From positions 26,774-90,773 of the IMG/VR virus record IMGVR_UViG_3300031576_000019: 64,000 bases of DNA. One strand, 5' to 3'. A program made the position numbers and the translations under genes. This DNA comes from a virus. Positions 1-63,826 of the stretch are shown in pieces (the stretch's first letter is position 1; the number at the start of each line of letters is the position of its first letter). The notes below the pieces were generated by a model. It saw nothing but the letters and a program-made list of their open reading frames with translations. It was not told the origin of the DNA and ran no database searches.

Positions 1-3000
1 TGGACCCATGTTGTGGAACGGGCGAGGCATTAGCCACCATAGAAAGGATGCGCGGTCCCGCAGAAACGTATGGAATAGAACTGTCGGACGTTCGTGAACT
101 AGAAGCAAAAACCCGTCTCACGACTACGATTTGTTGCGGTTACGAGTATTCCCAAATTACCGACGACACTTTTTCATTGGTACTTTTGAATCCGCCGTAT
201 GATGGCGAGGGAGACACAGGTGGTGGGGCAAGGATGGAAGAGACCTTCCTGCTCAACACCACCTCCCGCATCACACCAAGGGGTATTCTCCTTTATCTCA
301 TTCCCCACATCCGCTTGCACAATGAGAAGATTGCCCGCCACCTGGCTGGCTGGTATTCTGACCTGCGCTGTTTCAAATTTGCCAAAGAAGATTACGAGGT
401 CTTTGACCAAATCATCTTGTTTGGCGTGCGGCGGGCCGAATATAAGGCCCCAACCGCCGAGGCCCAAAACGAAATCCTCAATATCTGGTCGGTTGGGAAT
501 CTGGTAGACCGCTACGATGAAGTAGTTGGCGAGAAGGGGAAGGCTCACCGTGTAGCTGTTCCAGCACCCATGCCCTTCTTTGTTGCTGGGCAGGGTGAGT
601 ATGCCGTCCCTGATGCGCCTCTGCGCGGGCGGCATGGGGCTCCCTTCAAATTCCAATACCTAATTGTGTCTGACGAGGACAAGATTCGTGAGTCCGAGCG
701 GGCCGCAGGCCGACTCATCCGGGGCAACGCTTGGCGTGACCTCACTCCGCGTCTTGAGCCACTGGTAATTGAACCAGCCATGGAGCCCAAGAAGGGCCAT
801 ATCGCTATGCAGGTCAGTGGTGGTCTGCTTGGCACCAATCTCCTCAACGACCAGGGGCGCGTCATTCTCCTGAAAGGTTCGGTTATCAAGCGGTCCGTCA
901 CGAAGAAGGTAGTACAACCTGTAGACGAGGAGGGCGCGGAACCCCAGCCAGAGGAAGATGACGACAAAGAACATATGAATAAGGTAGAGATGGAGGAGCG
1001 TTTCTACACCAGTATGGCCGTGCTGTCGGAGGCCGGTGAACTCACCATTACCGAGGATGTATCGGAGGTCAAGGAACTGTTGGTCAAGCATGTGGCTCAA
1101 CTGGCCGATGTGGTTCAGGCCCGAAACCAGCCGCGCTACAGCATGAATCCTAAACCATGGGAGTGGGCTATCTTTGACAACCTCTCGCGTAGCCGACAAC
1201 TACCGGGCCGAAACGAAACGGGCTTGACCGACTTTCAGAAGCACTTGACCGTTGCAATGGGACGTTTGTGTCTGGCTGATGGGGCCGGGTTTATCAATGC
1301 GGAAATGGGAAGCGGCAAAACCACCATTGGTATCTCTATTGCTGAATATCTCAGTGCGGCCAAGACACGCAAGAATAAAGCGCCTGTTTATCCGGTCCTG
1401 GTCGTCGGACCTGGCATTGTTACTGGTAAAGAGAACTGGCCAAAGGAAATTCCCGAGGTCATCCCTGGCGCGAAAGCCCGAGTGATTGAAGTGGGAGCGA
1501 AAGCCGCTCCCAGGCCGATGAAGATTGGACAGTATCTTTTCTCCATCTTGGGATTACATCTCAATAAGTCCGACTTTGAAGGGAAGAATGCCTACGGATG
1601 CCTTAACTTGCTCAAAAGGATAACCTCCGAGCAGAAATTGCGCGTGCCCAAGGCTATTGCTAAAGCGGTAGAGTTTTCACTGCACGAGGCCGAGAAGCGC
1701 AAGCCTATTCGCCGACGCGGAGCTACTCATCCCAATCTGCTTGATGGTCGCATAGGTGGTTTCCTGTGGCTAGGACTGGATATGCCGCGCGACCCCGCTA
1801 CTGAGGATGACCGCCGCTACTCGGTCGCCCAATTTCTGGACGAGTACGCCAGTGGCGTAATGCCTCTCAAGTCCTTCGCTATTTTGTCGCACGAGACGGC
1901 CAAGCTGGGCCCAGGACGGGTGCCAGCCATCGTTGAGCGGAGCATCCTGAGTAGTAGTGACTCTATTGTGGTCTGCGCCTGTCCCATTTGTGGCACTCCG
2001 CTTCAAGATGTAGACCCTAAGACAGAGGAGAAGTTTTATATCACGCCCTCCAACTTGGAGGAGTGGATTGGCGCTAAACGCCGGTTCTGCGTGGCGCCCA
2101 TGCGTTCTCATAATGACAAGGCCCATCGGGCTGAGATCGGCAAGCGGATTTGGGACCCGGATAAGGGCAAGCATGTCGTGATGGTAAACGACGAACACGA
2201 CCAGCCCCATGTGTGCGGGAGTCCCCTGTTTTCGTACACCTATTACCGCCGAGAAGCGGCCGCCAGTTACATTGCCAAGAAAGCCAAGAAGAAGTTTGGC
2301 CTGATGCTAATGGACGAAATCCACAAGGCGAAGGCCAAGGGCACAGGCGTCGGGCAAACACTGACTCTGCTCAGCAACGCCATTCCCTATACCGTTGGTC
2401 TGACTGGAACTCTCTTTGGCGGATACAGCACATCCATCTTCTGGCTTCTCTATCGGCTAGCCCCGGAAGTGCGCCAAGAGTTTGGCTTCAACGACGAGCA
2501 ACGGTGGGTGGAACGTTACGGGCTTATCAAAAAGGTTTTCTATAGGGACAAGGAACTTGAGGAAGATGGTTCCTTTACCGGCAAGAAACACTTTGAAACC
2601 GTGACCGAACGGCCCGGCATCTCGCCCGCCATTGTTGGAACAGGATTGAAGTTCTGCTCCTTTAGCAGTCTCACTGACATTGGCTTGCCATTGCCTAAGT
2701 ATTCGGAGGAGATTGCCCGCATTGCTCCCTCGGACGATATGAAGAAACAGTATCTTGAGGCCGACAAGGGTGTTTATGATTGGGCTATCAGCCGAATGCA
2801 CGAACCGGGCGGCAAAGGTGCAATTGGCGTCTGGTTGACCTCGGCCCTCAATCGGCCCAGTTCAATGTGGCGCTATGAGAAGGTAACCTTCAAGGCTCGC
2901 ATCAGTGGCCGCGGCAAGTGGGCCATCCGGGCCGAAGAAGACGTGGCCGAGTTTGAGTCTGTGGTTCCTCCGGGTGGGATCGTGGTGGTGGACGGGAAAG

Positions 3001-3758
3001 AGATTTACAGGCCCGATTTATCAGTCCTGCTCCCCAAAGAAGATTGGCTGGCCACAACCGCTCGTAACGAGATGGTCCAGGGCCGCAAGACGCTGGTGTA
3101 TGTGCGTCAGACTGGCACCCGCGACATTCAGCCCCGACTTCAGGCGGTACTAGAAGCGCGCGGTTTGCGGGTAGGAATTCTGCGCCCATCCCTGGCCCCA
3201 GTCAAGCGTGCGACTTGGATTAAGCAGAACGCTCCCAAATTCGACGTTCTGCTGACCAATGCGCGCCTGGTGGAGGTCGGCCTGAACCTGACAATGTTCG
3301 CCACCGCAATCTTCTATGAACTGGAATGGTCGCTCTACACGCTCTGGCAGGCCATGCGTCGTCTGTATCGACCTGGCGCCCCTCTCCCGGTCAAGCTGTA
3401 CTTCCCGGTCTACACTGGCACGATGGAGGAGAAGGTCATTGACCTGATGGGGGCCAAGATGATGGCCGCTCAGGCCTTCTATGGCGATGAGGTGGGTGGT
3501 GCATTAGTGGAAGACGGTGACACCGGTGACTTACTGGAAGATTTGGTCCGTTCAGCCATGGGCGATCTAAAAATTGGACGGGCCGAGGGTCTTTTCTCGC
3601 TGGGTAATGACCTGCTGGTAACCGAAAGTCCGATGGGTAGTCCAACCGCCGTCAGCCCACGGATGAAGACTATGAGCGAGATGTTGGCTCTGGTCCAAAC
3701 TAGCGTCAGTCACAGGAAGAAGGTTGTCGTCCCCGACACCCAATTCTCGATGTTCTAA
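1..3758 (+). CDS. N6-adenine DNA methyltransferase (DUF6094-like) fused to an SNF2/SF2 helicase (DarB-like architecture); 5' end truncated by the window
   Basis: The frame is open from nt 3 and reads DPCCGTGEAL (SAM-binding motif I) before the ATG at 48. Also LLNPPY (amino-MTase motif IV), AEMGSGKT (Walker A), DEIH, LTGT and QAMRRLYRPG (helicase motif VI). Confidence 0.85.
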   Translation, partial: DPCCGTGEALATIERMRGPAETYGIELSDVRELEAKTRLTTTICCGYEYSQITDDTFSLVLLNPPYDGEGDTGGGARMEETFLLNTTSRITPRGILLYLIPHIRLHNEKIARHLAGWYSDLRCFKFAKEDYEVFDQIILFGVRRAEYKAPTAEAQNEILNIWSVGNLVDRYDEVVGEKGKAHRVAVPAPMPFFVAGQGEYAVPDAPLRGRHGAPFKFQYLIVSDEDKIRESERAAGRLIRGNAWRDLTPRLEPLVIEPAMEPKKGHIAMQVSGGLLGTNLLNDQGRVILLKGSVIKRSVTKKVVQPVDEEGAEPQPEEDDDKEHMNKVEMEERFYTSMAVLSEAGELTITEDVSEVKELLVKHVAQLADVVQARNQPRYSMNPKPWEWAIFDNLSRSRQLPGRNETGLTDFQKHLTVAMGRLCLADGAGFINAEMGSGKTTIGISIAEYLSAAKTRKNKAPVYPVLVVGPGIVTGKENWPKEIPEVIPGAKARVIEVGAKAAPRPMKIGQYLFSILGLHLNKSDFEGKNAYGCLNLLKRITSEQKLRVPKAIAKAVEFSLHEAEKRKPIRRRGATHPNLLDGRIGGFLWLGLDMPRDPATEDDRRYSVAQFLDEYASGVMPLKSFAILSHETAKLGPGRVPAIVERSILSSSDSIVVCACPICGTPLQDVDPKTEEKFYITPSNLEEWIGAKRRFCVAPMRSHNDKAHRAEIGKRIWDPDKGKHVVMVNDEHDQPHVCGSPLFSYTYYRREAAASYIAKKAKKKFGLMLMDEIHKAKAKGTGVGQTLTLLSNAIPYTVGLTGTLFGGYSTSIFWLLYRLAPEVRQEFGFNDEQRWVERYGLIKKVFYRDKELEEDGSFTGKKHFETVTERPGISPAIVGTGLKFCSFSSLTDIGLPLPKYSEEIARIAPSDDMKKQYLEADKGVYDWAISRMHEPGGKGAIGVWLTSALNRPSSMWRYEKVTFKARISGRGKWAIRAEEDVAEFESVVPPGGIVVVDGKEIYRPDLSVLLPKEDWLATTARNEMVQGRKTLVYVRQTGTRDIQPRLQAVLEARGLRVGILRPSLAPVKRATWIKQNAPKFDVLLTNARLVEVGLNLTMFATAIFYELEWSLYTLWQAMRRLYRPGAPLPVKLYFPVYTGTMEEKVIDLMGAKMMAAQAFYGDEVGGALVEDGDTGDLLEDLVRSAMGDLKIGRAEGLFSLGNDLLVTESPMGSPTAVSPRMKTMSEMLALVQTSVSHRKKVVVPDTQFSMF

Positions 3759-3982: not shown

Positions 3983-4327
3983 ATGCGTTTGTACATTGCA
4001 ACTCGAACAGAAGAAGACGGACCACAAGTATCCGTTCAGGATGTCGAGAAAGCCACATCCTACCCACTCAAACATATACTCCGTCACTCGCCCAATGGCT
4101 TTGAGTGGCATTATGGCGGGAGCGGACCGGCGGACCTCGCGCTTAGTATCTTGGCCGATTACTTTGGTGAACAGGATATCGACCCCGCCAGTTTTCTCTA
4201 TAAGACTCGTTCCGAGCGTCTCTACCAAGCCTTCAAGTGGCGTTTCATTGCGCCTGCACCAAGAGGAGACTGGATTCTCGCGGAAGGAGATATTACCGCC
4301 TGGCTCAAACACGAGGGTGAAATCTAG
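3983..4327 (+). CDS. DUF6166-like protein
   Basis: HSPNGFEWHYGGSGPADLA signature; AAGGAG RBS upstream. Confidence 0.7.
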   Translation: MRLYIATRTEEDGPQVSVQDVEKATSYPLKHILRHSPNGFEWHYGGSGPADLALSILADYFGEQDIDPASFLYKTRSERLYQAFKWRFIAPAPRGDWILAEGDITAWLKHEGEI

Positions 4328-4366
4328 TTTCCCTCCAAGTTGGAGGGATTAGTTGCTTCGCAGAGT

Positions 4367-4394
4367 AGCCTCATAGAAATATGAGGCTCTTTTT
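4367..4394 (+). terminator. Intrinsic terminator
   Basis: agcctcata-gaaa-tatgaggct (9-bp stem, GAAA loop) followed by cttttt. Confidence 0.75.
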
Positions 4395-6145: not shown

Positions 6146-6537
6146 AAAACCTCGTCATTAGCAAGAGTTTTTCACATCTCTGGCCCGCGCCAGAGATTTT
6201 CGTTATCCCACTCACGGCCGAAAATGTGAGTTTCCTTAACCATCTATGTGTGAATGTGAGGCTAGATCTGACTGTGCTACTAACGATCTATCCCAGAAGC
6301 GAGTTTGTTGTTGAGGCGCGGGCCCTGTTTGCCATCCACGAAGATCGCCCAGAATCGCTGGACGAAACGTGGATGATTGTTGACCAACACGCGGAATTTC
6401 CCTCTAAGTTAGAGGGCGGCAACCAATATCTTGTGTGTGACCAAGAGGGCTTCACCCTCCGAGTCTATGCCGACGAGGGCGGTGACTATGCCGACTCCGA
6501 AGATATTGAGTGGAAAGTTCTGGAGCAAATCGAATGA
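6142..6537 (+). CDS. Hypothetical protein
   Basis: ATGA coupling; start reassigned to MKNLV. Confidence 0.55.
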   Translation: MKNLVISKSFSHLWPAPEIFVIPLTAENVSFLNHLCVNVRLDLTVLLTIYPRSEFVVEARALFAIHEDRPESLDETWMIVDQHAEFPSKLEGGNQYLVCDQEGFTLRVYADEGGDYADSEDIEWKVLEQIE

Positions 6538-8056: not shown

Positions 8057-8319
8057 TAAAACAACAAATTCGATTTAACGTTAGCGACAAAGATAGCTCT
8101 TCTCCCGCCCTCTGCCCTTGTCGTGTGACGGTTGACCAATACGGGAATATGGAGTTGTTCGTTGAGGGCTATGGCACCGCCGACTCAGAGGTGAGCAAAG
8201 GTCCCATTGCCCACCTAGAACTATGGCAGGGCCAACTGCGCTTATTGGTCTGGCCAGACATCAAAAACGAGGAACCCCTGATTATTGATCTGGGGCAGGC
8301 GCGGGAGTCGCTTCGATAA
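8053..8319 (+). CDS. Hypothetical protein
   Basis: Coupled ORF; LELWQGQLRLLVWPDI..EEP. Confidence 0.55.
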   Translation: MIKQQIRFNVSDKDSSSPALCPCRVTVDQYGNMELFVEGYGTADSEVSKGPIAHLELWQGQLRLLVWPDIKNEEPLIIDLGQARESLR

Positions 8320-8812
8320 CCGTAACCGGTTCTTCCTCCAAGTTGGAGGGATGATTAACCTGCTGACCGATGAAGGTGGGGTTGAACATGGCAATCTGCG
8401 GCTTGGCTTCTCCGCCCTCCGACTCATTATTACCGATGGCCTGGTCCAGAGTGTCCTTCAAGACGGCCCAAATGAACTTAGCGGCCGCCGTAGAATTCTC
8501 GATTGGTAGTCCTTCCCCTTGGGCAATCTTGCGTTGGTGCCGCACGATTTCGGGGAAGCCCATCACCGCCTCCAATTGAGCCGCCAAGATAATCCCCTTC
8601 TTCAACCGCCCCACCATATCCTGAACATCTGGCTTCGCCATCCAGCGATAGTAGGTGGCGCTATCCAGCCCATGCGCTTCAAGCGCCCGTGTAAGAGTAA
8701 AGCCGGGGCGCATCGCTAATGCGACCACCTGTAGCACCTCCTTGATACGTTTCAGGCGCGGCACATTTTCTAAATCAGCATTTTCAATCATTAGAGCGGG
8801 AGTGTTAGACAT
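8282..8812 (-). CDS. HTH protein; terminase small subunit-like or a regulator
   Basis: N-terminal HTH (LTRALEAHGLDSATYYRW), helical core and low-complexity tail, as in TerS. The only - strand gene in the early region. Confidence 0.5.
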   Translation of the reverse strand: MSNTPALMIENADLENVPRLKRIKEVLQVVALAMRPGFTLTRALEAHGLDSATYYRWMAKPDVQDMVGRLKKGIILAAQLEAVMGFPEIVRHQRKIAQGEGLPIENSTAAAKFIWAVLKDTLDQAIGNNESEGGEAKPQIAMFNPTFIGQQVNHPSNLEEEPVTVIEATPAPAPDQ

Positions 8813-13253: not shown

Positions 13254-13639
13254 ACAACATCGAACTCAATCAACCGACCCAAAAGTTTATAAATTGGACA
13301 GACGAAATGCCCTTTTTTGTTATCTCCGACATCCTAAACGCGCGCCGCCGAGATGACCATCCATGGATGCGCTGTGGTCTGTGTGGCCACACTTTTGAAG
13401 CAGGTGATTGGGCACGGTAGCGTTTTGGAAATCCCAATATTTTTGTGTGTGCGGCCTGTGACTGTCCCAAAGATGAGATGCTGGCGAAGCAGGAGATACT
13501 CCGTGACCTTGTGCACCGTCTCTTTTGGGATTATTTGGCCAATAATGATAGTGGGTATCCGTCTCTTGATTTGAATTATCACTGGAACAAAGGCCAGATC
13601 GTCCGACCCTATTATCGCAATCCGAGAATAGGAAAATGA
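13250..13639 (+). pseudogene. Zn-finger gene interrupted by an in-frame TAG
   Basis: ATGA-coupled at both ends. Reads RCGLCGH...DWAR*RFGNPNIFVCAAC, with the TAG at 13418-13420 between the two CxxC pairs. Confidence 0.65.
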
Positions 13640-14406
13640 GCAACCGCTTCTATCTCCATCCCAACGGACACTATGTCCCATCCGTCACGACCATCACCTC
13701 CATCTTGGCCAAGCCAAGCCTGGAACGTTGGAAACAAGAACAAGTCATCGAGGCCGCTTTTGCCCTTGGTCCCGTCAGCGCCGACATGATTCTGGATACC
13801 GCCGCCCAGAAGAGTCGGGAAGCCACCGAATTTGGGACCCAGATACATGAGGCCTTGGCCCTCCTGCATCAGAATCTGCCTTGGTGGAATCACCCTGTTT
13901 GTGACGACCCGCGTGCTATTCCGATGCTGTTAACCTATAGAGATACTTTTCTCGTTCCATCCACCGTAGTGGATGGGCACAGACAAGTCGAACAACCTGT
14001 CTTCGGTATGACACCCAATGGTTTGGGCTACGCTGGCACGCCCGACCTGGTGTGTTACCTTCTTCCCGGCGCCATTATCAAGCGCACCCCTAAGGGCAGG
14101 AACATCCAAACCCATTGTCCTCCGCTCCTGGCCTATGCCATCATTGATGTCAAAACCTCCGATGCCATCTGGCCCGACTATGGCCTCCAACTTGGAGGCT
14201 ATGGAAGCATGTGCTCTATGCCTCCCACTTATCTTCTGTCTGTGCGGATGGACAAAAGCAGCTCTACTGATCTGGAGATAATATCTTGGCCAGTGAACGA
14301 AGCGATCCAGGCCTTTCTCAACTTGGTGCAACTCTGGTATTGGCTCAATCCTAAGGCCTGCGAGAGACAGACCAGGAGAATAGCAGACAGTACCATCAGA
14401 GCATGA
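13636..14406 (+). CDS. PD-(D/E)XK exonuclease (phage recombination exonuclease-like)
   Basis: PSVTTI, GTQIH, YAGTPD, IDVKTS and QLGGY motifs. Confidence 0.8.
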   Translation: MSNRFYLHPNGHYVPSVTTITSILAKPSLERWKQEQVIEAAFALGPVSADMILDTAAQKSREATEFGTQIHEALALLHQNLPWWNHPVCDDPRAIPMLLTYRDTFLVPSTVVDGHRQVEQPVFGMTPNGLGYAGTPDLVCYLLPGAIIKRTPKGRNIQTHCPPLLAYAIIDVKTSDAIWPDYGLQLGGYGSMCSMPPTYLLSVRMDKSSSTDLEIISWPVNEAIQAFLNLVQLWYWLNPKACERQTRRIADSTIRA

Positions 14407-16417: not shown

Positions 16418-16469
16418 ACTGCGCGAGCTCTGTCTCCTCCAGGTTGGAGGAAAGACCGAGCCGCCCGGT

Positions 16470-17293: not shown

Positions 17294-17297
17294 GCCC

Positions 17298-20305: not shown

Positions 20306-20347
20306 ATAATGGTTCACTTTTGAGGTACAATCCCTCCAAGTTGGAGG
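20302..20347 (+). promoter_or_regulatory. Promoter combining both palindromes
   Basis: ATGAATAATGGTTCAC (20302-20317), TACAAT (20326-20331), CCTCCAAGTTGGAGG (20333-20347). Confidence 0.6.
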
Positions 20348-24069: not shown

Positions 24070-24342
24070 ATGAGTGACCCTGCGGAGGAATTCCAAGCAC
24101 TCTTTCAAAGGCAGGCTTTAGCAGATCGACTACTCAATCGGGCGCGACTTGTGATAGAGGCGTTTCTCAGAATACACATCCAAGAAGCCATCTACCCCAC
24201 CGAGAACGAGCTAGCCGCGGGGTGCGCCACTTGGATTAGCAATCATGAGTCGCCCCGATTGGGCTGTCCTCAGGAGGAACTCGCGCAAGTGTTGTACCTA
24301 ACTTATCTGCTTGGTTATTTCCGTGGAGTAAAAGAGATATGA
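24070..24342 (+). CDS. Hypothetical protein
   Basis: AAGGAG RBS. Confidence 0.5.
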   Translation: MSDPAEEFQALFQRQALADRLLNRARLVIEAFLRIHIQEAIYPTENELAAGCATWISNHESPRLGCPQEELAQVLYLTYLLGYFRGVKEI

Positions 24343-44965: not shown

Positions 44966-45000
44966 CTCTACCCAATCCCTCCAAGTTGGAGGGATTTTTG

Positions 45001-48000: not shown

Positions 48001-51000
48001 AATACCCATCCCAACGCCAGGGCCAAGAACTCCACCAATAACCGAGGCCATATTGTTTCCGCCCATCCCAGATACACCACTGACTACATCGCCCCATGTG
48101 TTGGCCATTGCGTACTGAACCCCCGCTTGCGCTTGTGCAAACTGACCAGCATAGCGTGATGTGGCCAGTCCCGTTCCCCCAAAACCAAGACCGGCCAGTG
48201 CCTGTCCAATGCGTGTGTTAGATTGAGACTGGCCAGACAATGCCTCTAGTGCGGGAGCTGTGACCTGCTGCATGGTCCACGGGAGGTACTGCGCCGACAT
48301 TAGCGCCTGACTCGTGCGATTAAGTTGGGCTAGTGGAGAACGGTCGGACATCGCTTCCGCTTGTGACACCGCCTCACCACTCAAAATACCCGCATCGCTC
48401 AGGCGCTTGGCAAATCTCTCGAGACTAGAGGCATCCGAGCGAGTGCCAGTGGTGGCACCCAAAAACAATTGACGACGCTCCATTTCCATCTCACGGTACT
48501 TCTCAGCCACTTGGGGTGAGACAGCCCCCAGTCGCATCTCAATTGCTTTAGCCGCAGAAGGATAGGCGTCTTTGCTAAAATCCAAATTCCCCCCTGCGAC
48601 ATCGGCCATGACCCCGACCCCGACACCATGCTTTTCGAGAAATTTTCCTTGCTTCTCTGTTAAATCCACAAGCCGGTCCTGATATTTGAGCTGTCGGGCC
48701 TGCACATAATTTAGCCGTTCTCCGGTTTCGCGCATGTTTCTAAAAGTAGCCGTCAGTTCTGTGGATTCCTTTATCATCCCGCCCATGTCTGCCTTCGCAA
48801 AGGCTTCTCCCGCTTGAGCCAGAGTCATCTTGGCTGTCTTGGCCCCACCCGGTCCGCCGCCTGCTTTGCCAGCCCGATAATCGGCAAAGCTCTTTTTGAC
48901 GCTCTCTTCCGTATCGCCCAGCGCCTCCGGTCCGTGTTCCAAGAACCACGCCTTTTCCCCACTATCGTCGGATAATTTCCACGGATCGATGGAAGAAACG
49001 ATATTTTTTAGCGAGCCCATTACACTCGGCTCGGACAGACGACCCGGTGCCTGGAGGGCTCCCCGAATTTTATCGAATGCCTTAAGGGGAACGCTATCGC
49101 GGGCAAACGACCCCTCGGCCCCCCTCATGCCCATCAAGTCCATCGTTGAGAAGTCACCTGTTTCGGTCAGACTCTTAAGGGCCTGAATCATCCGGGTCGT
49201 TTGTTGTGGACCCAGATTCATTTCGTTTAGAGCGTTTTGTTCGGCCTGCTCCTTCATAGCGTATTTAGAATACGATGCCGTTGCCTGAGCCACCTTTGGA
49301 ATAAAATTAGGGTCAGTCGGGTCGTAGAGAGCCGGATTAATAAACGACTGGCCCTGACGGAAACGCTCTGCCCCACCACCCACCTTCTTCTCGGCCTCCG
49401 ACACCATTCGTCTAGCCTCATCCGGTGACATCTTCTCCAGGTTGCGAAGATGCTTGGCCTCGGTCGGCATAATTTTGGCTAAGAGTAAATTGTCTGGATT
49501 TCCCAGTGAGGCATTGGATAATTTGGGAATGGCAAAGTTCAACTTCTTGGCCCAAGTTGCCAGCGTATTGTGGCCGAACATTGTCTCGCCCTTGACGGGA
49601 TAATCTCCAGTCGCGCGAGGATTGATCGCCATTCCGGTCAACCTCCCAAATCGTTGAAGGAAGTCCTCCGCCTGTGGCGCTACAATCATATTGGCCAAGG
49701 TGTTGGGCAGGTCAATCCTGTTCTCGCCCGGTTCAGGCTTGCCGCTATAAAAGCGCACCGTTTCATGGAGGCGCATCCCAAACTCGGCCCAATCAGCGTC
49801 CTTGTCTCCTAAGGGCGCTTTCTCGATCTTCCAGCGCGCGGCCGCCATGGCTTTGATAGCCGTTGGTAAAGTTCCCAACTGTCCCGCCTCGCCCCATGGA
49901 TCACGGCCCAGGACTATTCCCATTGAATTGGCAATCCAACCCGCCTTCTTCGAGGCATCCATCCCCTGCGCCTTGGCGAGTTGTGTCCGTAAGAACGCTT
50001 GTTTCTGTGGGTCATTAATAACCAGTGGAACAAGAGCTGAGGCGTCAGAAAACTCGGGAGCCGTCATCAGCGCTGTCAGCGCATCGGTCATACCCGCATT
50101 TCGGCCACCACCAGCAGCCTTGGTCATAATGCCCGAAACCTTCTCGCCCGGCTTGGGCGCTACGCCCGCTGTAGCCGGTTGCATCCGGTCACGCACAGCC
50201 ACGAGTTTCTCAAAGGCCCCCGAAAAGGCTTCGCTATCCAGCATCTTTTGATAAGCCGGAAGTACAACCTGATTGAACTGGTCTTGTCCGCCCGATAGAA
50301 CAGACAGCACGCGCCCAAAGTTGAACTCTTTGCCCATACCCGCCTTGTACTCCAGCGTCTCGGCCAAAGCCTTCTGAACCGCCTCGGGAGTTGTATGTCC
50401 AAAGGTTCCCAGTTTGTCAACCATCCCCAGCATAGAGGTCTTCAATCTCTCAAAGTCATATTTGCCGGTACTTTTATCAAATCCCCACTCCCGCGCATCT
50501 TTGGCCCACTTGTTGATTTCTTGGGTGCCGAGACCAGAGAACTTCTCGTCCATGAGTTTCTGGCGATTTACAACCTCGTCCGAACTCATCCCTGGCCGAA
50601 TGCCGTTGGCCCGGACCACAAATGCGCGGCCAGTCCGCTGAACACTCAATGCGCCAATACCCGAAATGCCAGACGCATCCGGGTCAAAGTCGCCGATGTT
50701 GATAGACTGAACCTCTTTGTTCAACAAAATCCCGTCGGGGAGATTTGAGGGTGTCACTCGCAAATTGAGCAGGTTGGCATCCGAAATGTTGGGGTTGCGC
50801 CAGGTGTAAGCCCCCACGTTGTTTTCGCGCAGGTAACTCTTAAGCGCCAGAAGTTCCGGGGGTGTCCGAACTTTGAACATTCGCATGAGTTGGGCATCTC
50901 CCAACCGCATCTCGTTAATTGGAACATCCTGAACGCCCGGAAGCGCAGATACCGGACCACCGGTGGCGTTCCTGGGATAGAAGGATGTCAGCGCCTTGTG

Positions 51001-53364
51001 TGTACCCTTTGAGCCATACATTTCTGCCACAGAAGCGCGATGCTTCTGTACCAGTTCAATGGGCACTTCCTGACCCGTCGCCTTGAGCATCAACATCTCC
51101 AAGGCGCTGGTAGCATAAGTGGAACTGTCATTTTCCAGGCCAACAAAACCATCGTCATTGGCCAAGTCTTTTCCCATCCCGCCTCCCAAGGCATAGCGCA
51201 GGTTGCGAACAGATGGCAAGGGGAGAGATTGTTTCACACCGTTCTCAGTATAGGTCATCATAAGTGGCGACCGCGCCTGATGGCGCATGTCAGCCTTGCT
51301 TGCCCCGTTCATCTCTCCCAGAAAGCCCATGGCCGATTCAAGACCATCCAGGAATTCATGTGGCGTAGGAGTTCCCGATCCAGCGTGTCCCTGTAAGGCA
51401 CTGGACAGAGCGGCCTCTGGTAGTTGGGAGGCGTCTAAATCAATCCCGCGCCGAGGCGTGATATTGGGAGCACCGGACATGACTGCCCCAGCGTTGATGA
51501 TCTCGCCGTAAATATCCTGCTTGCCTATACTCTGGCGACTCAGTTGAGAAAATGAACGCGGGTCAGTCTTTGCCATACGCATGGCAACTTCCATTGACAC
51601 CTTTCCGGTTGACCATGGCCAAGCACCAGAACGTGAAAGGGTCTTGGCAAATGGCATTGACATGACCTGTTGACCAGCCGCATTAGTCTTAGCTGAGTTA
51701 CTAATGATGTAGCGTGCCGCCTGTTGAATAGCGGGCAAGTTGGATTCCGTCCATTGGGGAGCTCCGGTCGAGGGATCAATGAGCGCGGCTAGGGCCGGAT
51801 GGTCCCACCCCTCGCGTGCGCCAAAGCCCTCAATCATTGACTGAACACCTGCCAGTGGATTCTTGAAAAAGTCATTGGGTGAAACAGCAAAACCTTGGAA
51901 GCCCCGAGGAGCAAATCCATAGTTTTGTTCGTGGTGTGCCACAAAGACCTTGCTCCCCTCGTGGAACAAGCCATAGTTCCCCTCACCCACTCGTTGTCGG
52001 ACAGCGGTTTCGAGGAAGTCGCGCATCCCACCTTCAATCCGCCGAGTGGCGCCCACCTGTGTCTCATCCCAACTACCCGTACTTCGCCCAAAATGTGGAA
52101 CAGGTGTATCTCGGCCCCCGACTGTGCCCCGCCAGAAACGCTCATTCTTGAATTGGCCCGCCATCCCGTGTGTGCGCCACGCCGTCTGCCGTTCAAGCGA
52201 AACCTGCTGGCCAACCGAAACACCCATACCCGCGGGCATGGATGGATCAAACAGAATGTTGAAGACCTGCGCTTGTCGACCAGTAACGGGTGAACCATCC
52301 GGCGCATATTCCACAATTCGCGTATTGATTTCAGGAACGCTCAGCCTCCCGCCCGTCATACCTCGACCCACATCCCGGTAGCCCGAGACTTGCATGTGTT
52401 TCATCATCTTCATCTCATCACCGGGCTTCTTGTAATTCAGATAACTCACTCGCCCCCTTGAATCCCGCGATGACATCATCCCCTGATAAGTCATTTGCCC
52501 GGTATCAAATCCGTAGACATCATTTGGGTTCCGTGTCCCAAGTGGCGAGCCATCGGAAGATGCGAACTGACCACTCAGATCAGGATTGACCAAGTTTCGC
52601 TTATTGAAGATGCGGTCATTAGGATTTTGGGTTTCGGGGAAGAATTGGGTTGAAGCGATACGCCCCAGTCGGTAGTTACTTTGTGGGGTAAAGGGGTCAA
52701 CATATTGGCCCTCACGCTGTCCAGCCACAAATCGTGGGCCACTCTCTGTCTGACCTGGAGTAGACATCGCCTTGTAGTGTGCGCCCACATCTCTTAATAC
52801 CAGCCGACGCAGAGTATCGTACTGTGTCTCGCCAGGCTCGGATACGATTGATCTTCCGCCTAAATGTAGCCCGCCCGTCGAATCGCGCCAGAGACGCATA
52901 TCCATTCGGTTCTGGCCAGCGATGTTGACCGTTGCATACGCATCCCCGCCCATGGATTTTTGAGGTGGCAAACGCAGGGAAACATCTGCGCTTGGAAACT
53001 TTGCGCGTAAGTCGGCTTCAAGTTTTCGCACCAAGTCGTTGGTGCTGGTCGGCTTGTAACGGTCACTTGTAGACGGGAAAGCATCAAAGCCTGTATCAGC
53101 ATCATCAGGCTCAAGCATCCCCTCATCTTGAATGGGCTGGAAACGAAAAGGGACTTGTGGAATGCGAGATTGCTGAACTCGTGGTGATTGCTCGTACCCC
53201 CCATAATGCGCGTCCGTAGACAACCGCGAGTTAAGGCTTTGGTAGACGGCATCGTAGAGAGTTGGCGGTACCTCACCACGCTCAAAAAGTTCGGCCAGCT
53301 CAGAAAATGCGGTTGTAGGGTTTTGGGCGAGATGCGCTGTCAGACGCTCGGTTGTCCAAGACAT
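45001..53364 (-). CDS. Tape-measure protein with a putative N-terminal two-barrel RNA polymerase domain
   Basis: Follows the tail chaperones. Has Gly-rich hydrophobic segments, 18-aa (W/Y)Q..DF repeats and a C-terminal VGEYEDEYVSIYPL. WRNP...NIGDFDPD at 50802-50677. Confidence 0.8.
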   Translation of the reverse strand: MSWTTERLTAHLAQNPTTAFSELAELFERGEVPPTLYDAVYQSLNSRLSTDAHYGGYEQSPRVQQSRIPQVPFRFQPIQDEGMLEPDDADTGFDAFPSTSDRYKPTSTNDLVRKLEADLRAKFPSADVSLRLPPQKSMGGDAYATVNIAGQNRMDMRLWRDSTGGLHLGGRSIVSEPGETQYDTLRRLVLRDVGAHYKAMSTPGQTESGPRFVAGQREGQYVDPFTPQSNYRLGRIASTQFFPETQNPNDRIFNKRNLVNPDLSGQFASSDGSPLGTRNPNDVYGFDTGQMTYQGMMSSRDSRGRVSYLNYKKPGDEMKMMKHMQVSGYRDVGRGMTGGRLSVPEINTRIVEYAPDGSPVTGRQAQVFNILFDPSMPAGMGVSVGQQVSLERQTAWRTHGMAGQFKNERFWRGTVGGRDTPVPHFGRSTGSWDETQVGATRRIEGGMRDFLETAVRQRVGEGNYGLFHEGSKVFVAHHEQNYGFAPRGFQGFAVSPNDFFKNPLAGVQSMIEGFGAREGWDHPALAALIDPSTGAPQWTESNLPAIQQAARYIISNSAKTNAAGQQVMSMPFAKTLSRSGAWPWSTGKVSMEVAMRMAKTDPRSFSQLSRQSIGKQDIYGEIINAGAVMSGAPNITPRRGIDLDASQLPEAALSSALQGHAGSGTPTPHEFLDGLESAMGFLGEMNGASKADMRHQARSPLMMTYTENGVKQSLPLPSVRNLRYALGGGMGKDLANDDGFVGLENDSSTYATSALEMLMLKATGQEVPIELVQKHRASVAEMYGSKGTHKALTSFYPRNATGGPVSALPGVQDVPINEMRLGDAQLMRMFKVRTPPELLALKSYLRENNVGAYTWRNPNISDANLLNLRVTPSNLPDGILLNKEVQSINIGDFDPDASGISGIGALSVQRTGRAFVVRANGIRPGMSSDEVVNRQKLMDEKFSGLGTQEINKWAKDAREWGFDKSTGKYDFERLKTSMLGMVDKLGTFGHTTPEAVQKALAETLEYKAGMGKEFNFGRVLSVLSGGQDQFNQVVLPAYQKMLDSEAFSGAFEKLVAVRDRMQPATAGVAPKPGEKVSGIMTKAAGGGRNAGMTDALTALMTAPEFSDASALVPLVINDPQKQAFLRTQLAKAQGMDASKKAGWIANSMGIVLGRDPWGEAGQLGTLPTAIKAMAAARWKIEKAPLGDKDADWAEFGMRLHETVRFYSGKPEPGENRIDLPNTLANMIVAPQAEDFLQRFGRLTGMAINPRATGDYPVKGETMFGHNTLATWAKKLNFAIPKLSNASLGNPDNLLLAKIMPTEAKHLRNLEKMSPDEARRMVSEAEKKVGGGAERFRQGQSFINPALYDPTDPNFIPKVAQATASYSKYAMKEQAEQNALNEMNLGPQQTTRMIQALKSLTETGDFSTMDLMGMRGAEGSFARDSVPLKAFDKIRGALQAPGRLSEPSVMGSLKNIVSSIDPWKLSDDSGEKAWFLEHGPEALGDTEESVKKSFADYRAGKAGGGPGGAKTAKMTLAQAGEAFAKADMGGMIKESTELTATFRNMRETGERLNYVQARQLKYQDRLVDLTEKQGKFLEKHGVGVGVMADVAGGNLDFSKDAYPSAAKAIEMRLGAVSPQVAEKYREMEMERRQLFLGATTGTRSDASSLERFAKRLSDAGILSGEAVSQAEAMSDRSPLAQLNRTSQALMSAQYLPWTMQQVTAPALEALSGQSQSNTRIGQALAGLGFGGTGLATSRYAGQFAQAQAGVQYAMANTWGDVVSGVSGMGGNNMASVIGGVLGPGVGMGIATGMLTAPILGPLAIPAGVIAGGVTSSIGAMSAASHYVKSPKDFNEMLYNTYGGDKGIGQLSLGDALGGGVVGQWLFSQSAGAQQMVGEETQVAAGMSQFDLAGMSYEDRARYMRQRAVTGVGGYESTMARLGVDEDVAVGISTRLARAQNYMQGPDAWRGPGKGGEESPVEFWKGTEEKILRAMQAGVDPEQFAEQLQAGLGGSMDTAYQKSYAALEKYTPEQMRAASRGLGMENLLAMEGQEVNFDRAIRSGELAGRDKFIHGLVESIFGQLEEGLAGGFKWSGITEFTKQADLGTAEGDATAYGLGRQGMVQRGRFESIRSMLEGQGLANVDNFSNLLAEDPQRAGRFGQLFQASALDLGGAGAKSYALAMSGASSYQRSLGENVRGRLGQFMGEQGAADLAVAMRNATPQEALIAQGVLSGNANAMSMAGAQMGGPGSWVTNQTGGRTGSAGMSLFTNSILSAGGQVSPLIAGSFKNFSAPVQAALVGQGKPNAVGQTYGGMWGLQDYMSDLSYQSQAASSGISARGVKIGMAFTTGQGLGAYAGSAVYKPGEALPWSINGGTASAIQEGRGMWALQDESTQLQRTQAQGNLAFSQRGLEMRGRQFQAGWDFNRAQAVTQQGWQQEDFSFRGQQVNLQRGYQLEDFSFGRMQSAQSRNWQSQDFAFQRGQNQQHFGWAMEDIDEDIRFSTGRDRRQLERQKKRTTLDHNAEETQQNKVESRQRKLWKDEDDRYKTETVRAAEQFKTQVERLAVEQNRSEEMFKLSMQRMDMEKGNFYENQALESDRIAAQRGWLAESEAIEDEQRNLERTHWKLQQENQLAGIGSGLHYAKLMKDAQAAATELGRKQGENEAGLRYMMDTSAKFYNGVGDWLWNMFQWLGNASLEDAANVAHPPNYVPPATGGSSNSGGEEAIPVASGRQFLATKNQLLRVGEYEDEYVSIYPLNSQPPDLPRPGSSKLEGNGGYGDVYVILDGDQIAARIERRQAKTLRRQSAL

Positions 53365-53416
53365 ACAGATACAACCTCTCAAAAGAGGGGGATGGGGTGA
53401 ACATATCCTTTGTAAT

Positions 53417-53464
53417 CTCTGTTTGCTATCTGTTTCATTAGGAGTAAAATATGAACATGGAAAC
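53417..53464. repeat. 48-bp perfect direct repeat, copy 2
   Basis: Identical to 44269-44316. Confidence 0.95.
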
Positions 53465-53576
53465 TACGTTGCCCGAAATGATTGCCATCGCAATATGTTT
53501 CGGGTTTGTGTGGGTGATCGTGATGGGAATCCTGGCTATCCTGATGGCCCTTGTCGGAAAGGTCATCAATGGCTAG
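53451..53576 (+). CDS. 41-aa single-TM peptide (type I toxin-like), copy 2
   Basis: MNMETTLPEMIAIAICFGFVWVIVMGILAILMALVGKVING; same RBS as copy 1. Confidence 0.7.
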   Translation: MNMETTLPEMIAIAICFGFVWVIVMGILAILMALVGKVING

Positions 53577-53725
53577 AACTCTCGTTACGCTTACCAAAGA
53601 TTTGGCACAACAGCGCCATTCTCCTCCAACTTGGAGGAGATGAGAGGTTGCTATTCTTTTGAGGGCCAATCTAATCTTCGGGGAAATTCGCCAAAATGCT
53701 TCTTGGCACGCTTGGAAACAATCTC

Positions 53726-58575: not shown

Positions 58576-58577
58576 GC

Positions 58578-59060
58578 CTATTTCACCATGCCCTTGCGCA
58601 CCGTTGGGCCGTTGTAACCACCTAAGATCACATGCAGTTCCAACTTGCCCGAAGTGGCGCCGGTGGCAAAGGTACAAATGAGCTGGTCGGCGACCGCGTA
58701 AAAACGCCCGCCCTTGGCATAGCCGTTCAGGGTGTGTGTGCCAGCGATGTCGCGTCCAAGTTGGCGGCTGTCACAAACAGCATCGAGGGTGGTTGTGCTG
58801 AGATCAACGGTCTGGAGAAATCCGTCATCGTCCGCCGCATCACCAATCTTGACGGTCGGCGTGCCGCCCGCAAAGACCGTCGCTACACGCGCGCAGACGC
58901 CCTTGATCCACTGACCACCCTCCACTGGAACACGGTAAACGTTGGCCACTAAATCTGTGGTGAGAATGTTGAAAACTTTCTCATAATCCTGATAGGCCAG
59001 AGACGCATTGTCGCTGGACCCGGGACGCGGAGAGAGCTTTACTTGAGAATCGTGAGGCAT
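58578..59060 (-). CDS. Head decoration/cement-like protein
   Basis: F.GGTPTVKIGD..D.DGF pattern; between the scaffold and capsid genes. Confidence 0.55.
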   Translation of the reverse strand: MPHDSQVKLSPRPGSSDNASLAYQDYEKVFNILTTDLVANVYRVPVEGGQWIKGVCARVATVFAGGTPTVKIGDAADDDGFLQTVDLSTTTLDAVCDSRQLGRDIAGTHTLNGYAKGGRFYAVADQLICTFATGATSGKLELHVILGGYNGPTVRKGMVK

Positions 59061-59072: not shown

Positions 59073-59684
59073 TTATTGTTTCAGTAGGGCTTGGTGCTCG
59101 GCATACAGTCCGTCATACTTCACCATTTCGCCCAATCTTAGAGCGGCGGTCATTTCTCGAAACACCAACTCTTTGGTACGAGCGGCTGTGGAAGCAGGGG
59201 CGGCCGGGGTGGCGCCAACGCCCTGAGTGTTGATCACTCCTTGCGCCCGCAGGCGGTCGGAGAAGACCTTAAGCAAGCCTTTTAGTTCATCGCCTTTGCC
59301 AACCGGGAGCAACTTGTCCTTCTCAAAAGGCAGAAGTTCGGGAAACTCAGTAGCGATAATGTGTAAGCGGTCGCGCGCAGAAGTCGCTCCCTCCAAGTTG
59401 GAGGAGAGTTCGGCAACCCGCTTTTCAAGGGCCATCTGAGTAACCGTTAGAGCCTCCCGTTCACCGGTGAGTTTCTTGTTCGCTTCTTCCTGGTCATGGA
59501 GTTTGACCTGTTGCGCTTGAAGCTCAGCCTGCGTCTGCTGGAATTTGCCTTGCAATCCTGTGAACCGACGCAGATTTTCTTCGGATTGCTTCTGCCAATC
59601 TGGTTGGCCTCCGGTAGATGAAGCGGTTGAGCCGTGTTCACCTGCAGCGGGCACAATAGTTTCTGGCGTAGTCGGCTGAGTCAT
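59073..59684 (-). CDS. Scaffolding protein
   Basis: DWQKQ...RF.GLQ, long coiled coil, synteny. Confidence 0.65.
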   Translation of the reverse strand: MTQPTTPETIVPAAGEHGSTASSTGGQPDWQKQSEENLRRFTGLQGKFQQTQAELQAQQVKLHDQEEANKKLTGEREALTVTQMALEKRVAELSSNLEGATSARDRLHIIATEFPELLPFEKDKLLPVGKGDELKGLLKVFSDRLRAQGVINTQGVGATPAAPASTAARTKELVFREMTAALRLGEMVKYDGLYAEHQALLKQ

Positions 59685-60121: not shown

Positions 60122-60124
60122 TGA

Positions 60125-61711
60125 TTATTCTCGTGCCTCAGCGTTGGGTGGATGACCACCCTTAAGCTTTATCTCATCGGGAGTGGCCATAATAGGCTGG
60201 GGTTTACTGGCCGCCTCCAAGTTGGAGGCGGCCTCGGCCTGTTCCTTGATGCGCTTTAGTTCGGCTTGAATATCTGGCACAGTTCCTAATCGCTCCAGCA
60301 TCATCTCGAGTGAGATGCCTTTTTCTTGTAGCAATCTCACCAGTTCATCCACTAATTGTTGGCGGTCCACCGGCACCATGGGCGACCAGATCTGACGCTT
60401 ACGGAGGCCCAGATGGGCTTGAGTGATGCCTGCTCGACCGCGCAAGGCCAGGATTTTCAGCGCCATCTCTGCCCGTGCGCTGCGCGCCTCAGACCAGTTG
60501 ACGCGCTCACTCTGAACATGCGCCAGAAGCGGCCACATACGCGAGTAAAGGGTCTGCCCGCTCCGCTGTGAGCCTTCTTCCAAGCCATAAGCAATCTCCG
60601 GCGTCATCAGCGTAATGCGGATGGATTGCAAAAGATGATTGGTAAAGACCTGTGAACCTTCTGGTAATTTGGGCGAATCCAGCCGCTTGATATCCGGTTC
60701 GGGGTCACTGCTAGTTGTGGCTCGGCCAGCATCAATGTAGGGCTGACCATTCTCAAAGGTCTTCATCCGAGGCGTGTTCTTGATGTTTTTGGCCCAGATG
60801 AGGCTATGCACGCCAAATGAAATGGCATCTCCTACATCTGCCTCGCGCGCGTTCAGTTCTTTGATTTGCCCAATCGCTGATGGAACCAGTGAGTTGCCCC
60901 AGAAGTTCGCCGTGCGCTCATGCGGGTTATAGAGCATTGGACAGAAGCCCCAGTCATGGGTGCCCTTGATGGGCTTGCCCTCGGCATCTTTAGCGTCCTG
61001 CCCATCCACCCTTACCCAATACTCATCACGCGACCACCATTCCTCATAGTTCACAGTGTCATCGGTCACCTGAACACCGTAGCCATCGGCTTGCGCCTTG
61101 GTAATCGGCATCTTGATCCAGGCTTCGGTCAGGTCCCAGTAATTCTTCCCCTGCCAGCGTGCATGAAAGTAGCGCGGGTCAAAATACTCGTAGCGGATGC
61201 CAGTCGGGAGAAGTGGATTGCTGGGTTCCCAGCCCACCTTTAGCACGACTCCACCTAATGCTTGAATAGACACGCCCATGTCAATGTCAGCTGCACGGGT
61301 GTGATTCTCGTACTCAATCTGCTCCAGAACGAGCTCGGCTTGACGGGCCAGTTTCCGACCCGCATCATCAGCCTCACCCGCCTCGTTGAACCTGGGCTCA
61401 ACGATGGTCCTAACCAGCGGGCCACTCGTGTCCGGTACCTCACCCCACAAGGCGTAGGCGTGTAAGCGTGCCGCCAGAGCGGTCGGATTCATCTGGAGCG
61501 GGTATTTGAGTGGAAAAGTCCCATCTTTCAATGGGCGAGTCTTGTCTTCTTCTTTCAAGGCCTCGCCCGTAAACCAGCGCCACCACTCATTTATCTCGGT
61601 CTGGCGTGCTTGCCATTCTTGTAATTCGGCGTCACTAAGTCCCCCTGGTCCATCATCACGGCCCAGAAGTTTGCTCAGGAAAATTTTTAGATTGGCTTCA
61701 GCAGGATTCAT
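60125..61711 (-). CDS. Portal protein (SPP1 gp6-like)
   Basis: 528 aa; HDWGFCP, FWGNSL, TPEIAYG...SGQTL and acidic helical C-terminus. Confidence 0.8.
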   Translation of the reverse strand: MNPAEANLKIFLSKLLGRDDGPGGLSDAELQEWQARQTEINEWWRWFTGEALKEEDKTRPLKDGTFPLKYPLQMNPTALAARLHAYALWGEVPDTSGPLVRTIVEPRFNEAGEADDAGRKLARQAELVLEQIEYENHTRAADIDMGVSIQALGGVVLKVGWEPSNPLLPTGIRYEYFDPRYFHARWQGKNYWDLTEAWIKMPITKAQADGYGVQVTDDTVNYEEWWSRDEYWVRVDGQDAKDAEGKPIKGTHDWGFCPMLYNPHERTANFWGNSLVPSAIGQIKELNAREADVGDAISFGVHSLIWAKNIKNTPRMKTFENGQPYIDAGRATTSSDPEPDIKRLDSPKLPEGSQVFTNHLLQSIRITLMTPEIAYGLEEGSQRSGQTLYSRMWPLLAHVQSERVNWSEARSARAEMALKILALRGRAGITQAHLGLRKRQIWSPMVPVDRQQLVDELVRLLQEKGISLEMMLERLGTVPDIQAELKRIKEQAEAASNLEAASKPQPIMATPDEIKLKGGHPPNAEARE

Positions 61712-62389: not shown

Positions 62390-63826
62390 TCATCGTTCAA
62401 CCTGCCTTTCCGTTTGGACGCCCAGGAATAAAGTAAACTCAAGTTCCTTGCGCCAGACCGTTCCAGCATTAAGTGATCCGCTCTCAAACAGATTGTTCTG
62501 ATCTGCCCCGACCAGCACAACCAACAGACTTGTCGTTTCGGAAAGCACATAATTGTCGCTGACCACCCGGCTAACAATCAGCCCAGCCGTCTCGGACAAG
62601 CCGATGGTGTCAGTGGCGACATTCAGTATCTCCCGTCCAGCCTGTTCACCAAGAACAAAAGCGTCCGTCCCAGAAAATATCGCCAGCAAGCCAGATGTAT
62701 CTGAGATTACAAAGGTGTCCACCCCCGACACACTTACCGACAGAGCTGCCGCTTCGGATAGAGTGCCAGCGTCAACGCTCAAAAGCGTCAACTCAATCAG
62801 GGCTTGCTCAGTAAGCGTAACTGTATCGGCCCCGAAAAATATCGCCAACAGACCCGCGACTTCCGAGAAACCAAAGGCTTCAACACCTGCAAGAGTTACA
62901 GTCGACGAAGCCGTTGCGCTTGCCAGAAACTGGTCTGAACCAGTCAAACCAATCTGGCCCACATCCGTCAGGGCCCCGCTATCCGTCGCAGAAAGAATCC
63001 CTAACAGGCCAGAGGTATCCGAGGTCGCAAACGTCTCGGCCCCTGACACGCTTACTATAAGAATTGCAGTTTCAAGGAGAGCCGAAGTGTCTGAACCCGA
63101 AACCGCTAATTCAATGAGTGCTTGTTCGGTCAACGTGCTCGTCTCGACCCCAGAGAGACTCGCAAATGAACCAGCGACCTCTAAGACACCAAAGGTCTCG
63201 ACACCTGTTAGAGTGGTAGTTAGAGAAGTCGCTTCACTGAGTGAGAGCAGGTCTAAGCCAACCAGACTGATTTGGCCTGTGTCTGCCAAGGCCCCGCTAT
63301 CTGTACCAGATAAACTGACCGACAGCCCCACCAGCTCGTTTGCCGAGAATTGCTCGGTCCCCGTCAGGCTTGCCTCCAAGTTGGAGGAATCGGAAAGGGT
63401 TACCCCATCAGTCCCCGTCAGTTGCGCCAGAAGTGCCGCAATGTCGCTCAAGGCTAAGGTGTCACTCCCAGCAGACACCACAACCAGACCACCCGCCTCA
63501 GATAGACCAAAAGTCTCAGCGCCCGAAATATCAATCTGAGCGACCTCCCCAACAGCCAGAACATCGCTCCCCGTTAATGCTACGACCAGACTTATGGCCT
63601 CAGATAGGGTGTAAGTCTCATTCCCCGCAATATCGACCCGACCACTCTCAGTTAGACTTAAGGAATCGGTTGCCGAAAGTGTTACGGTCAGACTAGACGA
63701 CTCGGCCAGCGCGAAACTATCTACCCCCGCAACGTCTATCCGAGCGGCTTCGCCTAAACTGCTAGAATCGGAGCCAGCCAGGTTAGTTGTATCCGAGACA
63801 GAGTAGCCAAAGAAAACACGAAGCAT
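62390..63826 (-). CDS. Ser/Thr/Ala-rich protein built of ~18-22-aa repeats
   Basis: Recurrent SG.(D/E)T..LSE units. Confidence 0.7.
   Translation of the reverse strand: MLRVFFGYSVSDTTNLAGSDSSSLGEAARIDVAGVDSFALAESSSLTVTLSATDSLSLTESGRVDIAGNETYTLSEAISLVVALTGSDVLAVGEVAQIDISGAETFGLSEAGGLVVVSAGSDTLALSDIAALLAQLTGTDGVTLSDSSNLEASLTGTEQFSANELVGLSVSLSGTDSGALADTGQISLVGLDLLSLSEATSLTTTLTGVETFGVLEVAGSFASLSGVETSTLTEQALIELAVSGSDTSALLETAILIVSVSGAETFATSDTSGLLGILSATDSGALTDVGQIGLTGSDQFLASATASSTVTLAGVEAFGFSEVAGLLAIFFGADTVTLTEQALIELTLLSVDAGTLSEAAALSVSVSGVDTFVISDTSGLLAIFSGTDAFVLGEQAGREILNVATDTIGLSETAGLIVSRVVSDNYVLSETTSLLVVLVGADQNNLFESGSLNAGTVWRKELEFTLFLGVQTERQVER

Follow-up and report, generated by a model that had tools for sequence, protein, structure and literature searches.

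The 64,000-nt stretch of DNA analyzed here (the window) covers bases 26774-90773 of the 90,773-bp IMG/VR virus record IMGVR_UViG_3300031576_000019 (G000), and it carries many copies of a 15-bp palindrome, CCTCCAASTTGGAGG (CCTCCAA(G/C)TTGGAGG), scattered within and between genes. Judged from sequence comparisons, these copies appear on balance to form an array of docking sites for a dimeric reader acting over the whole phage chromosome. Each palindrome would be a duplex-DNA site to which a sequence-specific protein of two-fold symmetry (a dimer) binds with high affinity, a protein most likely encoded by the phage itself. With about one site per 2-4 kb, the array would serve the chromosome as a whole and not the control of particular genes, and new sites would arise by point substitution wherever it is tolerated, in non-coding DNA first and then in segments that allow S-N/K-L-E or L-Q-V/L-G in the protein. 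A role of this coverage type could be the marking, loading or organizing of the chromosome for packaging, replication or global control of expression.

Copies of the palindrome and selection on the DNA

The palindrome is not distributed by chance. The window contains 15 exact matches, none being found in 100 dinucleotide-preserving shuffles, and the whole record contains 25; the original prediction had counted at least 15 perfect copies, and both the number and the positions hold. When up to two mismatches are allowed, the window yields 19 matches against 0.35 expected by chance, the four inexact ones lying at 6401, 16436, 24352 and 58753, and G000 as a whole has five credible variants. The sites are listed below in window coordinates, which are used throughout unless a position is marked as a genome position; ORF stands for open reading frame and HTH for helix-turn-helix.

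2047-2061: exact copy, centre C, in methyltransferase-helicase ORF 48-3758 (+), read as SNLE
4332-4346: exact copy, centre G, intergenic, between ORF 3983-4327 (stop 5 nt before) and a terminator-like hairpin (4367-4388, 20 nt after)
6401-6415: variant CCTCTAAGTTAGAGG, positions 5 and 11 changed, dyad intact
8335-8349: exact copy in the small-terminase-like HTH gene 8282-8812 (-), SNLE, the stop lying 53 nt further
14184-14198: exact copy in exonuclease ORF 13636-14406, LQLG inside the conserved YGLQLxGY motif
15438-15452: exact copy where ORFs 14825-15469 (SKLE frame) and 15297-16193 overlap
16436-16450: one-mismatch variant (A7 to G), intergenic
18076-18090: exact copy in replication initiator ORF 17238-18299 (HTH_36 and DnaD_N), SNLE
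20333-20347: exact copy, intergenic, starting 1 nt past the -10-like hexamer TACAAT, its GGAGG 12 nt before the ATG of ORF 20360-20737
24352-24366: one-mismatch variant (C5 to T), codons 5-9 of HTH gene 24339-25085
28042-28056: exact copy, intergenic, with direct 6-bp GAATCT repeats on both sides (28036-28062) and the ATG of the serine integrase (- strand) 9 nt downstream
34635-34649: exact copy in ORF 34078-35052 (-), SNLE
44978-44992: exact copy, intergenic, 9 nt past the stop of the tape-measure ORF, 23-bp dyad followed by a T run
45108-45122: exact copy at the 3' end of tape-measure ORF 45001-53382 (-), SKLE
53623-53637: exact copy in ORF 53379-53669 (-), LQVG
58753-58767: two-mismatch match CGTCCAAGTTGGCGG, changes non-symmetric, may be chance
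59390-59404: exact copy in ORF 59073-59684 (-), a head-module protein common to relatives, SNLE
60214-60228: exact copy in the C-terminal tail of portal ORF 60125-61711 (-), SNLE, 25-bp dyad
63373-63387: exact copy in ORF 62390-63826 (-), SNLE

All 25 exact copies in G000 have G or C at the centre and none has A or T, with 13 G and 12 C on the + strand. Weak flank preferences are themselves symmetric (A-T-Y-Y on the left, R-R-A-T on the right) and lengthen the site to about 21 bp. Extensions of the dyad itself had been claimed for two copies and were found at both, reaching 25 bp at 60209-60233 and 23 bp at 44974-44996. The symmetric change described for 6401 was likewise recovered, with positions 5 and 11 altered and the dyad retained; this pair of positions is hit by three of the G000 variants. 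Sites are denser in the early region (about 1 per 2.7 kb) than in the late region (about 1 per 5.4 kb).

Genes in G000 were called by a simple longest-ORF heuristic. Eighteen copies lie wholly within ORFs and 7 partly or fully outside them; the non-coding share of the genome by the same call is about 5%, so that copies outside ORFs are enriched (binomial P 1e-4). In the window 11 of the 15 copies fall within ORFs, close to the two thirds estimated before. What keeps copies inside genes? The original prediction placed selection on the DNA, and codon-preserving shuffles agree: 300 synonymous-codon shuffles retain a mean of 0.2 of the 18 genic copies. The motif has in turn shaped proteins, because two kinds of peptide are mostly encoded by it and exceed what composition predicts, namely S[NK]LE (12 of 14 in the proteome, about 0.8 predicted) and LQ[VL]G (5 of 6, about 1.3 predicted). 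Selection thus bears on the DNA itself, with enough force to alter proteins. An earlier list of the proteins so affected stands in part: the copy at 15438 probably gives SKLE at the 3' end of ORF 14825-15469, and the resolvase entry was wrong, the copy at 28042 lying not inside the resolvase but 9 nt upstream of its ATG.

Alignments with homologous proteins indicate that the copies arose by substitution, not insertion. In an alignment of 18 portals, SNLE stands without gaps opposite AELA, AEIE and similar peptides in a variable C-terminal helix, and the copy at 60214 is associated with no indel relative to the 17 portal homologues. Nor is there an indel at 14184 relative to the exonuclease homologues, one of which carries Pfam PF12705; the 6-bp direct flanks of this copy encode the conserved YG...YG of the nuclease motif. 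A miniature mobile palindromic element was considered, two copies having 6-bp direct flanks, but was rejected on these indel-free alignments. Some of the intergenic copies probably also came to serve as terminator stems or ribosome-binding sites; the GGAGG of the palindrome precedes the integrase start (28042) and the start at genome 26138, as ribosome-binding sites do.

Related phages with palindromes of their own

No close relative of G000 was found in phage databases, by DNA or by portal protein. Distant relatives were collected by portal, capsid or terminase similarity from viral, genome and metagenome collections and are mostly partial contigs, their portals being 26-53% identical to that of G000. 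Many of them carry a dispersed palindrome of different sequence.

G405 (83.7 kb, complete): CGGAACGTTCCG, 28 copies
G409 (52.6 kb, partial): TTCCG-NSN-CGGAA, 26 copies
G410: TTCCTG-CR-CAGGAA, 6-7 copies
G411-G414: TTCCG-RYRY-CGGAA, up to 10 per 21 kb
G415: TTCCAA-S-TTGGAA, 9 copies, 11-bp core TCCAASTTGGA in common with G000
L192: TTCTGC-S-GCAGAA, 8 copies
L172: TTTGCAC-NSN-GTGCAAA, 5 copies
L184: CCTCCAC-RSY-GTGGAGG, 3 copies
L161 (portal 51% identical): CCTCCAT-YG-ATGGAGG, 2 copies

The palindrome is therefore a trait of the lineage with a common design. Most versions have outer TCC/GGA and, at the centre, either a G:C pair (odd length) or a YR step (even length). The central S holds in 9 of 9 sites in G415, in 8 of 8 in L192 and in all 25 listed sites of G409, and also in L172 and L184, and the YR step occurs as CG in G405, RYRY in G412-G414 and CR in G410, and in L161. 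If a protein and its site diverged together, one would expect just this, a different palindrome in each relative under a kept design. G415 was noticed solely through one exact copy of the G000 motif, and the capsid proteins of the two phages match at E 2e-151. At least five copies of a 5+5 palindrome occur in 7 of 57 portal relatives versus 1 of 48 unrelated viral contigs of at least 8 kb, so the trait is enriched in the lineage and not exclusive to it; neither of the complete relatives G406 and G407 has a palindrome of this kind. An apparent conservation of positions in G410 and G413 was rejected, their equal coordinates and a 1972-bp gap being a coincidence between dissimilar sequences.

The spacing of the sites is a further common property. 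Gap variation lies under the random mean in all seven genomes tested, with a combined P of 2e-4 over six (G415 0.013, G412 0.023, G413 0.030, G405 0.034, G409 0.13 and G000 0.18). Such even spacing suggests a function served by covering the chromosome and not by controlling individual genes. Presence of the array does not depend on lysogeny. A serine integrase is encoded in G000, the complete G405 with its 28 copies has no detectable recombinase of the tyrosine or serine type, and G407 has a tyrosine integrase and no palindrome; the stoperator-like silencing suggested by the original prediction is not supported, given these two relatives.

The host of G000 is probably a member of the Chloroflexota, because portal relatives sit on contigs of Thermoflexales, Anaerolineae and Caldilineaceae assemblies. 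The motif is as good as absent from the sampled genomes of this phylum: two single exact matches were found in 401 Chloroflexota genomes (a sample of the phylum, the host itself being inferred), and none in the 4 assemblies that hold portal relatives, even with one mismatch allowed. The possibility, raised with the original prediction, that the palindrome is as frequent in the host chromosome is thus not borne out in these genomes. Among 2.9 million viral contigs, 79 others carry the motif, each in a single chance copy.

Duplex site or hairpin

Is the palindrome read as double-stranded DNA or as a folded single strand? On the sense strand the centre is G in 10 copies and C in 15 (P 0.42), with no relation to gene direction. 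This favors the duplex, because G:C and C:G are the same pair when seen from either side of the dyad, while G and C differ in a single-stranded loop. The same rule for the centre holds in relatives with different arms. The symmetric flank preferences, the tandem pairs of sites in G409 and the weak hairpins of the relatives likewise speak for the duplex. The palindrome is thus probably a duplex site read by a two-fold symmetric dimer, and the earlier idea of a site for a dimeric protein is still the best reading, supported by the central G/C and the symmetry, once its prophage-silencing part is dropped.

Several points weigh against such a reader. Three of them would fit a hairpin better: 4 of the 25 copies have 4-6 bp of extra dyad, in three cases of unrelated sequence; one variant is a double change that preserves the dyad; and the four single-mismatch variants would all keep G.U pairing in the sense RNA. 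Half-site spacing varies by 1-2 bp among relatives, which is unusual for one dimer family, and the spacing of sites in G000, taken by itself, is not significantly even. The protein is also elusive. No ParB_N domain (PF02195, six-frame, E 0.01 or better) was found in G000, G405, G406, G407, G409, G412 or G415, although a very divergent form is possible, and no GERRxRA motif occurs in real ORFs; Pfam and PHROGs name few DNA binders among about 60 ORFs, and most of the roughly 70 ORFs annotated with them had no match; and no non-structural protein is common to all palindrome-bearing phages.

It is possible, although unlikely, that the element acts as a hairpin, either an RNA stem-loop (for 3'-end protection, processing or termination, or of the boxB type) or a DNA hairpin or cruciform (for priming or as an N4-type promoter). 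The G000 site can be drawn as a 6-7 bp stem with the loop A-S-T, its core folding at -10.2 kcal/mol as RNA and -6.6 as DNA, and every palindrome of the lineage can be written as a stem and a 3-4 nt loop. Terminator-like T runs follow three of the copies with an extended dyad (genome 13372, genome 21969 and window 44978), and several intergenic copies lie between a stop codon and a terminator (genome 25445, window 4332). However, the hairpins of the relatives are weak (-3 to -6 kcal/mol), that of G415 reaching only -3.3 with the same 11-bp core, and the centre is G or C equally, never A or T, and unrelated to the transcribed strand. Eighteen copies lie in ORFs, where termination or cleavage would be harmful, and the orientation bias that a promoter or priming signal would need is missing. 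Read on the coding strand, each single variant is a C>T or A>G change, which is a frequent mutational bias; positions 5 and 11 may simply be tolerant.

The N4 virion RNA polymerase uses three hairpin promoters, which lie upstream of early genes and are strand-specific. The G000 site, too, allows a stem of 5-7 bp around a 3-nt loop, but there are 25 copies here, mostly genic and without strand bias, of which 15 fit the orientation of a promoter and 10 do not. The link proposed earlier from the palindrome to N4-type hairpin promoters and a tape-fused RNA polymerase finds no support, given the lack of a strand relation, the genic positions and the weak hairpins of the relatives. Co-occurrence with the tape measure had been suggested as a check, and G407 has a giant tape measure without the palindrome. 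Giant tape-measure ORFs (about 2,260-2,935 aa) occur in G000 (45001-53382, -), G405, G407, G409, G411 and G412, and only their C-terminal 350 aa or so can be aligned, the N-terminal parts being beyond BLASTP. At residue 990 the G409 tape measure has a DFDED motif in a context like that of DFDPD in G000.

Candidate readers and other explanations

If a dimeric protein docks at the palindromes, which one is it? A reader of the ParB/KorB type was rejected, the Pfam search and the motif scan both being negative. The PDB sequence search made during ORF annotation gave no match, and no Cro/CI-type repressor gene was recognized in the annotation of G000. Two candidates were retained.

8282-8812 (-): candidate reader 1, 176-aa HTH protein of small-terminase-like architecture
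24339-25085 (+): candidate reader 2, 248-aa protein with a C-terminal HTH

The family of the 176-aa protein hits HTH_23 and HTH_Tnp_1, and Sf6_terminase in 2 of 33 members; the top fold matches of its model are small terminases, all weak (E above 0.1). About 29 kb separate its gene from that of the large terminase (genome 4287-5840), and it is encoded on the strand opposite to the surrounding early genes. Among the genomes compared the family occurs only in G000 and G409, where it is one of four non-structural proteins common to the two, and the palindrome lies inside the gene near its 3' end in G000 and 13 bp beyond the 3' end in G409. In the 248-aa protein the C-terminal HTH gives weak matches to Sigma70_r4_2 and HTH_24. 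Other candidate DNA binders are the initiator (17238-18299) and a sigma-like protein of 484 aa (genome 14190-15644).

The first candidate leads to a special case of the docking-site array, in which the palindromes would be pac-like marks read by the small-terminase-like HTH protein, so that packaging could start, or the DNA be recognized, anywhere. The trait follows the head and packaging module: head/tail and packaging genes and a single-strand binding protein are almost all that the palindrome-bearing phages have in common (by BLASTP, phmmer and HMM searches over six-frame ORFs), the few other small families being present also in the palindrome-free G406, and G415, found via the motif alone, has just that module in common with G000. 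The pac sites of several pac phages lie in or near the 3' end of the small terminase gene, where the palindrome is found in G000 and G409, and the trait is independent of lysogeny. G000 has a 127-bp terminal repeat (bases 1-127 and 90647-90773, the latter being window 63874-64000); 127 bp is a common largest assembler k-mer, and the repeat may reflect a self-closing assembly of a circular or permuted genome with no physical repeat. Yet the distance of the gene from the large terminase, its opposite strand, its restriction to two of the genomes and the weak fold matches all speak against this special case, known pac phages have one site where G000 has 25, and a copy near a given gene in both phages would occur by chance about 3% of the time at these densities. 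It is decidedly unlikely in this form. A broader and still tentative version, for which the chances are small, would have a self-marking lattice, evenly spread, whose reader is no repressor or clamp of the ParB/KorB type but a fast-evolving packaging or head protein (such as a small terminase), with site and reader diverging together within the fixed design of outer TCC/GGA and a central G:C pair or YR step. If so, phage DNA could be recognized as self anywhere along its length, for instance for the initiation of packaging.

Alternatively, the sites could be operators through which an immunity repressor silences the whole prophage, like Cluster A stoperators or the dispersed repressor sites of phiC31. 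The serine integrase of G000 would suit this role, as would the overlap of the copy at 20333 with a -10/start region and of that at 28042 with the integrase ribosome-binding site, the tandem pairs just upstream of genes in G409 and the denser copies in the early region. Such an array is nevertheless highly unlikely to be operators of this kind: G405 has its copies and no detectable recombinase, G407 an integrase and no copies, most copies lie far from promoters, and no Cro/CI-type gene was recognized. The G000 array resembles stoperators in having a large number of short, almost identical sites along the genome, which a single phage protein would bind. Stoperators lack symmetry, follow the direction of transcription and belong to the immunity repressor (PMC4351075), whereas the G000 sites are perfect dyads, without orientation and not tied to lysogeny. 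Most improbable of all is a host protein as reader, or an iterated host repeat (of the HIP1, uptake-sequence, Chi or nucleoid-protein type) copied by each phage from its host. No conserved phage reader was found, the differing palindromes of related phages could mirror differing hosts, and portal relatives do occur in Chloroflexota assemblies. But HIP1, REP and uptake sequences are iterated in their hosts, and the near absence of the motif from the sampled phylum, and its complete absence from the four assemblies with portal relatives, argue against a copied repeat.

Comparison with known systems

The closest precedent is the 17-bp dyad repeat TGTTCGG-NNN-CCGAACA of the Cluster O mycobacteriophages, present in 34 copies in Corndog, for which a dimeric DNA-binding protein has been predicted and the function left open (PMC4351075). 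Both arrays have invariant inverted arms in tens of copies (25 plus 5 variants in 90.8 kb in G000), lie between and within genes without orientation to transcription and are denser in non-structural regions; the Cluster O phages have no integrase, and none was detected in G405. The sequences, the phage lineages and the host phyla are unrelated (mycobacteria versus Chloroflexota assemblies); the centre in Cluster O is mostly TTT/AAA, and in G000 it is always G:C; and five near-identical genomes with one repeat contrast with distant relatives that have different palindromes of common design. The same kind of array, on record since 2015 without explanation, thus appears in an unrelated lineage, whose many members, each with its own sequence under one design rule, offer a natural series in which the reader could be found by co-variation, and a setting for testing chromosome-wide marks in packaging, organization or global control.

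The best-understood system that would work in the manner proposed here is that of KorB. OB sites are repeated along the IncP plasmid RK2, both near to and far from promoters. The OB core is TTTAGCSGCTAAA, and a sliding-clamp model has been put forward for KorB (PMC11790492). As in ParB-parS and Noc-NBS, the site is a palindrome of 13-16 bp with a central G/C, repeated on one replicon and bound by a dimer that acts replicon-wide. Unlike in the KorB and ParB systems, a search of G000 and six relatives gave no ParB/KorB N-terminal domain; and G000 is a phage, not a plasmid, with most of its sites inside genes.

Other observations

The two tandem pairs of G409 have centres 21 and 24 bp apart and lie just upstream of genes, and one precedes an extended -10-like sequence, an operator-like geometry. 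Within G409 (L139-L141) there are 11 symmetric TTCCGT-S-ACGGAA sites and 12 copies of the asymmetric TTCCGAGACGGAA, of which 10 have the same orientation on the + strand regardless of gene strand. G000 has a promoter-like unit at window 20300-20332 and genome 15700-15740, in which (G/A)TGAA-N6-TTCAC precedes TTTT-N3-4 and a TAnnAT hexamer. In the palindrome-free G406 (80.2 kb; loci L130-L134), about 15 copies of the asymmetric cAGAACCGA(A/C)TATG lie mostly 15-25 nt upstream of a ribosome-binding site in the direction of the gene, and this motif looks like a phage-specific promoter or leader.

The ORF at genome 26138-26668 matches NUMOD4 and HNH_3 in Pfam, and phmmer groups with it the window ORF 43531-44262 (-), several ORFs of G406 and two of G405; by these matches they are probably homing endonucleases. 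Finally, unrelated IMG/VR contigs have repeated palindromes too, TTCGCA-N-TGCGAA five times in L059 and GTAGATCTAC three times in the AT-rich, related L037, L044 and L083, and dispersed palindromes may be common in phages.

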